Of a stretch of DNA of 64,000 nt, positions 33,001-36,000 are shown piece by piece. The DNA is from an uncultured delta proteobacterium. Its GTDB lineage: Bacteria; Desulfobacterota; Syntrophia; Syntrophales; Smithellaceae. The position numbers were made by a program. The DNA lies in contig CAWETF010000005.1 in assembly GCA_963812045.1 (NCBI GenBank), positions 747,696-811,695 on the forward strand, given 5' to 3'. The stretch's first letter is position 1, and every line of letters begins with the position of its first letter.

Positions 33001-36000
33001 AATATGATCCGCTGTTTTGTATTTTAAATGAACCTATCCCTATTATTTCCCAATCCTTTATTATCTGGCACAACGTTAGTTCATTCTTTCATGCTATTTT
33101 GCCAGATCTATTAAGTAATTCAAGACGTGCTTCCAACGGTGCTTCTACTTCCTTTAGATGAAACAGGGTGCTTGGACCACCATGAAAAGTCGACGAAATC
33201 TCGAAAAAACCATTCATGGATACTGATATTACACCAGTGCCGCCGGATGAAGAATTGAGAACATGATTTGGTGCAAAATGAAATTTTATATAAAATAGTT
33301 TTCCAAGAGTGTTTAGTAACGGGTATATTTCATTTCCAAACTTGCCTGATGTAAATGGGCTAAGATCAATATTTTCTCTTTTTACAAATGCGATTTGCTT
33401 TTTGGTCGAAACGCTGGCGTCAATAATTGAATCCAGAATCACTATACTTCCGATATTTTTTTCTAAGAAAGAGACTAACTCATCATTATTACCTGACGTA
33501 ATAAGAATTGTGCCAATATATTTTGGCACGTCGTCATACTTTGTTTTGGAAGGGCTCCACGATATGCCGCCGATTGGGGTTGAGAAACCTGTAATTCGGC
33601 GAATCCATCGAAATATATTTTTAATCATAATCGTTCATTCTTTTACATAATAAAGTCTTGTAGGGTGGAACAAGCATAGCGGTTCCACCATTTATTCGAT
33701 CATTCGGTGGATGCGCTTGCGCTTCATCCACCCTACAACTTTTATTTTAATACGTTGTTTTATGATATTGGCTTTCCTATTCTCTTCCACCTGACGTTAT
33801 CTACGTCTTTATCCCAAGACCAATATAAATTAATAACTTTCGCTTTGATTGTGTCTTTTTTCACAATGCCCCAGAACCGGCTATCAAGACTCTCATCACG
33901 GTTGTCACCCATGACAAAGACGGCATTGTTGGGAATAGTTACCGGGCCGAAAAAATCTCTTGGTTGTCGAGCGGCAGGTATCATATGTGGATCTTTATGG
34001 ACTACATACGGTTCAAACAACATTTTGCCATTTAGATAAACCTGCTTTTCTTTAATTTCTATAGTGTCGCCACTGATAGCCACAATTCTTTTGGTAAAGA
34101 CTTTCTTTGGGTCTACGGGATAAGGAAAAATAACTATATCACCACGTTTAGGTGAACTGTGTTGATAAATATTCATATCGACAAGTATGTGATCGCCAAT
34201 CAAAAGAGTTGGTTCCATAGCCCCTGAAGGAATTTTATAAGCCTGGATAAAATCTTGTTTTACTGTCTCTGTAATAATGGGAGTTACTATTCTTCCATTA
34301 ACTTGCCAAATTGCAACAAGAAGAATATAGCCAATTACTGGTTTTATTCTGAGCGTATTTTCTGGATCTCTGGCAATGAGAATGGCATCTATTATAGCAA
34401 ATATATACAAGCCAATAAAAAGAAGAGCAGGAATTATAATGTTGAATGGAGGGATGGGCTTTGTGAGGATAATGAGAGCTACGAGCACTAGTATAAGCCC
34501 ACCGATATAAATAAACACCCCTCGTTTAATTTTGCCGCAGGATATTTGCCCAAGACCAGGCATCAAAATACTGAGAATTGCTGCGCCAATTACGTTAATT
34601 GTTACATTTTTTGCTAATTTGTTTTCATTCATATTATTTTTGCCCAAAATTGTTTATATGGATCGGTGTTAATACTGCAAATGCCGCAATGGTGTCGACA
34701 TAGCACCCCTCAACAACTTTTTACCAATTGAAACTTGAATCTGAAATTTTTTTAAAGATTGAAAATTATAAAAACACACCAGTTAATAATATGTCAATAT
34801 TTTTTCTCTATATCTCAGTAATACAAAGTCATTTGTTTTTTGCCGAATTCACATAGTCGCTGTAACAGAACAAGAGCAGAAGGACTGATTGAATTATCCA
34901 GGTAGGAATCATCTTTTCAATCTTGATCAATCCGCTAGAAACTGCGAACGCTCCTGCCAATATCAACCCGATAAGAACAGGAATCACTGTGATCATAATG
35001 ACTCCTTTTCGCTCAACAGGTTTTCTATCCGCCCAAATAAGCAAAACAGTCCAACCAAGCATTAACGACGCGCCAACCATCATCGCGTATTTATAATCAT
35101 TCCCCGGATTAAAATTATCTATTCCAAACATGACGCCGGCAATTCCAGGGAACAACATCGGAATGACCATTAAGCCGTCAAGCACGGCCCCGAACCAATA
35201 ACTGATGCGCAGAAAAATAACTTTGTTATGCATATAATCCCCTCTTGTATAACGGCTAATGTAGCGGTAAATGGTCGGACTAAATTTTCTATATTTTACG
35301 TTTTGATACCAGTTCAGCAAAATGTTCAAATGAACGATCATATGTTCTTTCCGCATCTTTCGGAAAACAGCAAGCGGGCAGTGCCCTGCTTTTTAAATGA
35401 TATGTTAAACAGTCGCAGCATACGCCTTTCCTGCTGCATGGTTCATAAGTGCAATTACATTTATCGAGGTTTTTCTCTTTTTTACATTCCATTTTGGTAT
35501 TCCTTTATAAAAACTGGATTCCCGATCTGGTCGGAAATGACACTTTATATTTTTTATCTTGACGGCTGGAAAACGCCTTCGCGCACGGAACGAACATCTT
35601 CAACGGTAAAAAACGCCTGAGGATTGTTCGATTGGATTATCTCCAGAACGTGTTCAATGTTTTTTCTTTTAACGATGGTAAAAATAATTTTCACCGGTCC
35701 CTGCGCCCCTTGTGCGTCCATGTGCGTGACGCCGTAGCCTTCGTTCTTGAGAAGGTCAATCAATTCATCCGCGTCCTTTTGTGTTATTATCCTGATAACG
35801 ACCGTGCCAATCGCCATCCTTTCTTCAATTAGAATCCCGATAAAATTACCCATCCCGAAACCGCCGGCATAAGCTACATAATAAATAGGATTAGTAAGAT
35901 TTTTAAAAATCTGAGTGATGGCAAACAGCCAGATAAGAACTTCAAAGAATCCGATAGAAGCGGCCAGAAATTTCAATCCGCGCGAAACGTAGATGATGCG

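Follow-up and report, generated by a model that had tools for sequence, protein, structure and literature searches.

Genes at the locus

In a 64,000-nucleotide (nt) stretch of DNA from an uncultured delta proteobacterium of the Smithellaceae (GenBank assembly GCA_963812045.1, contig CAWETF010000005.1, positions 747,696 to 811,695), here called the window, an initial annotation had singled out a type I signal peptidase (SPase) gene and three small genes around it. All four open reading frames (ORFs) exist on the minus strand, which, apart from one hairpin, also carries the other features of this locus, and each has homologues; judged by homology, they are real genes. The SPase ORF spans 33760-34647 if translation starts at a TTG, and its upstream end lies at 34632 if it starts at an ATG. 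Translation probably does not begin at the TTG (34647), and the ATG is preferred, giving the gene at 33760-34632 a product of 290 amino acids (aa), the length of the exactly matching sequence in a public collection and of most homologues. This product scored 144.9 bits against TIGR02227 (cut-off 47) and 140.6 bits against Pfam Peptidase_S26 (PF10502, cut-off 22.9), with the TraF and SipW models far under their cut-offs. Structures of Escherichia coli LepB matched it at E 1e-20, with alignment of the Ser box IPSGAM (Ser136) and the Lys box KR (Lys181); the conserved boxes B-E were all aligned to E. coli LepB and are invariant in 26 homologues. Its AlphaFold model (mean predicted local distance difference test score, pLDDT, 79) retrieved 1t7d, 1b12 and 4wvg with Foldseek (E 1e-8 to 1e-7, probability 1.00). 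Family scores, aligned boxes and the Foldseek matches bear out the annotation of an SPase with all catalytic boxes, and the predicted 290-aa protein is a bona fide member of the type I family (S26A). It shares the catalytic domain, the Ser/Lys dyad boxes and the fold with housekeeping LepB, in a short form that lacks the large insertion of the E. coli enzyme and has the C-terminal motif of Desulfobacterota LepB proteins. The residue five positions before Ser136 is Ala, not Pro, and on this ground an involvement in arylomycin resistance was rejected.

The enzyme differs from housekeeping LepB in its N-terminus. Four helices are predicted in the first 125 residues (3-23, 35-56, 63-87 and 98-127), three of them additional to and in front of the usual anchor. 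The membrane module (codons 1-121, 34270-34632; pLDDT 88-94) carries the PGLGQ…GKIKRG motif at residues 24-38, in agreement with the polytopic extension described initially. G26, G28, G33, G38 and D82 are invariant across the 26 homologues (41-88% identity), which gives the conserved motif G-L-G-Q/H...G...R-G plus Asp82. More than 100 clusters at 90% identity have the same 282-290-aa architecture. Searched alone against 1.84 billion proteins, the N-terminal 121 residues retrieved 151 representatives; an S26 domain was present in 83 of the 149 examined, and the remainder were short stand-alone proteins, fragments or fusions. The extension was held to be foreign to housekeeping LepB, and this part stands, as lepA-linked LepB has one helix; it is not rare, however, as at least 83 clusters at 50% identity combine the extension with an S26 domain in one protein. 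The short motif recurs, likewise where the first helix ends, in DUF5683 and other small ‘PGLGQ’ membrane proteins, and the module is also seen by itself or joined to zinc ribbons; its match to DUF5683 (17.9 bits) is below the Pfam gathering threshold of 26.7.

Downstream of the SPase gene lies the 179-aa protein reported earlier (p179, 33089-33628), a conserved protein without signal peptide or membrane segment, which has ten homologues, belongs to no family and was modelled by AlphaFold with a pLDDT of 45. Upstream are three further genes. The nearest encodes a polytopic membrane protein, and its longest ORF (34829-35356) overlaps the next gene; translation almost certainly begins at 35233, which makes the product (34829-35233) 134 aa long, like its counterparts in relatives, so that the ‘four-transmembrane’ protein of the initial annotation is real but was almost certainly assigned the wrong start. 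The 67-aa Cys-rich mini-protein (35289-35492), confirmed with its eight Cys residues, belongs to Pfam DUF6485 (49.1 bits, threshold 24), a family for which no papers were found in the literature. The DUF5698/DUF2179 gene (UPF0316, YebE-like; 35554-36099) encodes a membrane protein and is the first of the three in a conserved core block.

Five related contigs (80-86% nt identity), one of them a Smithella sp. metagenome-assembled genome (MAG), keep the order rsmB-fmt-MFS-ECH-DUF2179-DUF6485-134aa, and both the SPase gene and p179 are absent from all five. The DUF2179, DUF6485 and 134-aa proteins are 87-92% identical between window and relatives (90% for DUF6485 and 87% for the 134-aa protein, the latter in relatives without SPase). 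When two core proteins were compared codon by codon, second-position changes were few; the core genes, DUF6485 among them, differed from those of the relatives mostly at third positions. Because the block is conserved in relatives lacking the SPase and p179 genes, the three are, on this comparative evidence, vertically inherited core genes without a tie to the SPase. Base composition bears out the ‘AT-rich islet’ only modestly: the segment has a GC content of 0.376, where the window averages 0.422 (z about -1.3, with 9-11% of equal-sized windows as low). The signal is mainly that of SPase and p179, in which GC at third codon positions (GC3) is low (0.32 and 0.30). The Cys gene has a GC3 of 0.31, and the membrane protein and DUF2179 genes have 0.47-0.48, like the flanking genes.

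Cassette boundaries in homologues and probable integron remains

In two of these five contigs, L097 and L099 (compared loci are designated here by L and a number), a split tyrosine recombinase follows directly on the 134-aa gene, where the window has SPase and p179. Its parts matched the integron integrase model TIGR02249 with 240.8 and 209.9 bits at model positions 1-174 and 197-315. Beyond the integrase lies a same-strand array of small genes, including Phd/YoeB and ParE toxin-antitoxin modules, separated by canonical attC sites (e.g. GCCTAAC...GTTGGGC), and the left end of each array cassette is complementary to its own R'' box. RNAalifold gave no consensus for seven attC sites, and the structure was therefore drawn by hand; the hand-built structure was 81% paired over the seven sites, against 15-46% when slid. 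As read from these alignments, the core block borders a chromosomal integron in this Smithella-like lineage. An integrase fragment 79% identical to the L097 enzyme was also seen in L063 (1-1204), convergent to an ordinary lepA-lepB pair.

Parts of the same platform can be traced in the window. Two conserved non-coding segments, x and y (34708-34813), correspond to L097 9342-9384 and 9503-9555, just upstream of intI there; this region includes a promoter-like TTGACA...TATAAT at 34765-34797. What is left of the ribosome-binding site and start codon of intI, GAGGGGTGCTATG (34669-34711), was aligned with L097 and L101; it leads into a 10-codon ORF, after which the integrase proper is missing. Next comes a 26-nt attI-like junction, ATTAACACCGATCCATATAAACAATT (34648-34673), aligned with sites in L101 and L102/L103. 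Those sites end ...AACAATG|TT, and the first genes behind them differ; the window junction reads ...AACAATT|TTGGGC and is followed by SPase. From the candidate cassette left end, TTGGGC...ATG (34630-34647), onwards, the window is homologous to SPase cassettes in loci L013, L005 and L009.

The boundaries of a cassette are best seen in these homologues. The same SPase family was found in ten independent contexts with unrelated neighbours, and nucleotide homology of the window to L013 (91% nt), L005 and L009 is limited to 34639/34647 to 33740/33743, the edges of the ORF, which would be the body of a former gene cassette. Taking G|TTRRRY as the core site pattern, the left end is G|TTGTGC in L005 and L009 (downstream R'' GCACAAC), G|TTGGGC in L013 (R'' ACCCAAC), G|TTGGAC in L012, with a 46%-identical SPase (R'' GTCCAAC), and G|TTGTAC in L103 (R'' GCACAAC); in each case a hairpin comes after the R'' box, and compensatory changes occur among these pairs. 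The left end was complementary to the R'' of a downstream attC in seven of the ten contexts; among ordinary SPases with a short N-terminus, used as controls, it was so in two of 34 (Fisher p about 1e-4). These controls came from a metagenome scan by generic C-terminal patterns, which returned mostly ordinary SPases; a scan of genome contigs yielded only four distant loci. A downstream attC is present in L013, L103, L012, L005 and L009, with hairpins of one family in L013 and L103. L102 and L103 encode an identical SPase and diverge inside the R'' box (GCACAA|...); the attC is thus interrupted at its start, as in the window, which may reflect an insertion target or an assembly artefact. On the strength of the boundaries in the homologues, we regard the SPase gene as an integron cassette; no report of a type I SPase as an integron cassette was found in the literature.

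In place of the SPase attC, the window has an imperfect 83-nt hairpin (33657-33739, assigned to neither strand; DNA fold -26.1 kcal/mol, z -7.3) made of two inverted units, each a GTAG and a GGTGGAxx..xxTCCACC stem. It begins exactly where the attC of L013 begins, and the expected R'' is missing. The hairpin had no Rfam match and no attC model hit, and an Rfam scan of 32-37 kb and three loci returned nothing relevant and no attC family. It looks like a repetitive extragenic palindromic (REP) doublet rather than an attC; as regards that comparison, it is single-copy among the window and the compared loci, and the window has no Y1 transposase. Its interpretation as an inverted attC was rejected, AAC...GTT being found on neither strand.

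To judge by its homology to L014-L016, p179 seems to be part of another cassette that is unrelated to the first. This homology covers about 33650-33085, starts at A|TTATGT (G|TTATGC in L014) and ends just past the stop codon. In L014 (7977-9830; likewise in L015), the p179 homologue precedes two conserved genes for unknown proteins of 154/178 aa and 186 aa, and the sequence suggests that this homologue is the first gene of a three-gene cassette, because an R'' complementary to the left end (GCATAAC to G|TTATGC) comes only after the third gene; the window would keep the first gene only. Just after p179, at 33067-33081, AACTAAC|GTTGTGCC reads as an R''-like and an R'-like box abutting without a hairpin, which may be a collapsed attC or chance.

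The combined observations suggest a model in which the SPase gene is a single integron cassette stranded beside integron remains, next to unrelated core genes, and we consider this account probable. The gene would be stranded because attC models find no site beside SPase or p179. Integron gene cassettes and clusters of attC sites lacking integron-integrases (CALINs) are the obvious comparison: they share with the SPase gene a single ORF, G|TTRRRY bounds in homologues, and an attC with complementary R'', and the window gene is part of foreign, low-GC DNA at the site of an integron. The window copy differs in being without attC and with a mutated crossover G, and may be described as a fossil. 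Loss of intI is one proposed route to CALINs (PMC8618304).

Several points weigh against this account. No attC was found beside SPase or p179 in the window, either by eye or with the covariance models R1 and R2, filters off included, and the base before both cassette left ends in the window is T or A, not G. Three contexts of the family (L006, L105 and L108) carry no cassette signature. The alignment behind the attI-like label covers four sequences from three independent loci, of which L101 and L102/L103 are likewise without intI, and the site is only loosely similar to the attI beside the intact-length integrase in L097. A complete integron was not found in the window, where just the last 15 codons of intI are left (42479-42523). 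Finally, the R'/R'' test and the attC covariance models are home-made. The models are narrow, recovering lineage-specific attC sites and missing others, including some accepted by eye (e.g. L012 8849-8902); simple attC pattern detectors did no better than on shuffles, and a strict consensus gave only two sites.

Possible function and alternative readings

SPase is the first gene after the attI-like site. The promoter-like region found ahead of intI in relatives lies upstream of it, and the gene is probably expressed because of this position behind the former integrase promoter region. The window genome would have lost the integrase, had the SPase attC swapped for an unrelated hairpin and acquired a mutation of the crossover-site G, and owing to these three changes the cassette is probably fixed in place. 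The four helices are predicted to anchor the enzyme with its N-terminus outside, in keeping with positive loops, including GKIKRG, that would lie inside, and the Ser136/Lys181 domain would face outwards, toward the periplasm. The enzyme may act as an accessory type I SPase that cuts signal peptides of exported proteins encoded elsewhere, and the benefit may be an extra or altered processing capacity. In Bacillus, the plasmid SipP and the chromosomal signal peptidases are functionally interchangeable. SipP is the closest precedent for a mobile accessory SPase, being a type I enzyme on a mobile element beside chromosomal copies (PMC5243856); it differs in having a plasmid as its vehicle, in its Gram-positive origin and in having a single anchor and no extra membrane module. 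A review puts the share of cassette proteins with signal peptides at 10-30% (PMC8618304).

A wider proposal, which we put forward tentatively and would at present sooner doubt than accept, is that four-helix ‘PGLGQ’ SPases are a large family spread mainly as integron cassettes in Desulfobacterota and their neighbours, with the extra module setting substrate choice or regulation. If so, protein-export processing would itself be a horizontally traded trait, with possible roles in handling the many exported cassette proteins or in a membrane-protease function not yet recognised. Were a census to uphold it, a housekeeping-like export function would join the integron gene pool, and the family would provide a natural experiment on the role of the extra helices.

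The cassette protein might also use the SPase fold for another job, such as site-1 cleavage of a membrane regulator or action as a defence/abortive-infection effector or competition factor. Homologues do sit among toxin-antitoxin, GmrSD, HEPN and Imm8 genes, and the conserved extra module with an invariant Asp within a helix suggests some added function. The neighbours vary, as independent cassettes would, PADLOC returned no match for any of the seven local proteins, and the catalytic domain is in no respect unlike that of an ordinary type I SPase, all of which makes such a role unlikely.

It is a good deal less probable again that the gene is the housekeeping lepB of this organism, in a lineage where LepB has extra helices. 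Such a reading would be in line with the intact catalytic boxes, with the catalytic-domain identity of ~49-52% to lepA-linked LepB proteins and the C-terminal YWSW...RW.RIG motif common to both, and with the failure to find a second lepB in the 64-kb window. Against it, the gene is missing from the syntenic locus of the 80-86%-identical relatives, a homologue with 88% amino-acid identity (about 91% nt) has wholly different flanks, and the gene bears cassette signatures and a low GC3. Linkage to lepA points the same way: lepA lies directly upstream of 19 short-type catalytic-domain relatives and adjoins none of the extended-family loci examined, which have variable contexts and cassette boundaries. 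One such lepA-linked LepB, from a Desulfonatronovibrionaceae MAG (Desulfobacterota), was read and has 199 aa and one membrane helix. Because ordinary lepA-linked LepB proteins are of this type, with one helix and about 200 aa, the window enzyme is inferred from its sequence and context to be an accessory, mobile paralogue, and the essential lepA-linked lepB would lie elsewhere, beyond the window.

We give very little credence to the view that SPase and p179 are ordinary strain-variable chromosomal genes whose core-site and R'' matches elsewhere are coincidental. It would accommodate the absence of attC at either window gene and the reliance on home-made detection methods, but leaves the excess of R'/R'' complementarity over the controls, the compensatory changes, the shared attC hairpin family flanking SPase in L013 and L103, and the integron integrase at the same locus in relatives without explanation.

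The initial annotation had proposed a four-gene secretion or processing module, in which SPase would mature the Cys mini-protein or nearby secreted hypothetical proteins. The genes are on one strand and closely spaced, and substrate-specific SPase paralogues exist, e.g. SipA for pili (PDB 4n31) and the Bacillus thuringiensis SipP, which cleaves RsiP (PMC8844934). However, when the SPase-homologue loci (44-88% identity) were searched by tblastn for p179, DUF2179, DUF6485 and the membrane protein, nothing was found; neighbours differ at every one of these loci and include Phd/PIN, HigB/HTH, GmrSD, HEPN, Imm8, transposases and unknowns. Conversely, SPase is not adjacent to p179 homologues (69% identity), and the three upstream ‘partners’ occur together without it in the five related contigs. 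No signal peptide was found on any SPase neighbour. As neither p179 nor the Cys mini-protein has a hydrophobic N-terminal segment by simple hydropathy, they would not be type I SPase substrates. Dedicated S26 paralogues (SipW-TasA, SipA-pilin, TraF-pilin) are likewise extra to a housekeeping enzyme, but they are genetically linked to their substrates, a linkage that was tested for the window SPase and is absent. With intergenic gaps of 131-196 nt, a strong hairpin between SPase and p179 and a GC3 that divides the gene set in two, the module can be dismissed with next to no hesitation, and the low-GC segment is, on its gene and base content, a junction. This removes an apparent new secretion module and leaves a low-GC patch that marks a hot spot of integrons in a lineage of uncultured syntrophs; what remains of interest is the cassette-borne, membrane-extended form of an essential-type enzyme.

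Other integron-like and AT-rich features

A second integrase-less integron remnant was seen at 37277-42602 (minus strand), between the MFS and ECH genes that are adjacent in relatives. It has its own copy of the promoter-like element (42563-42595), the intI 3' codons mentioned above, attI-type repeats and two model-supported attC sites (40923-40984 and 38462-38526), all on the minus strand. About nine small genes are present, encoding an AT-rich 154-aa protein, two GNATs, a glyoxalase, a ribbon-helix-helix (RHH)-ParE pair, a hydrolase, an FMN reductase and a radical SAM protein; the RHH-ParE pair is 85% identical to an L097 cassette.

Between a 153-aa ORF and the gene for a D-Ala-D-Ala carboxypeptidase there is a 91-nt palindrome (27246-27336) whose ends, ATCTAAC...GTTGAAC on the minus strand, are of strict attC type. 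A 38-nt stretch at 3403-3439, which contains the hairpin CCCCCTTTACTAAGGGGG, is 95% identical to L014 7305-7342 (also L015 and L016) on unrelated contigs; a terminator and a dispersed repeat are both possible readings. The genes at 59639-61019, one of which encodes a SET-domain protein, are richer in AT than any others in the window (GC 0.25-0.29, GC3 0.18-0.21).

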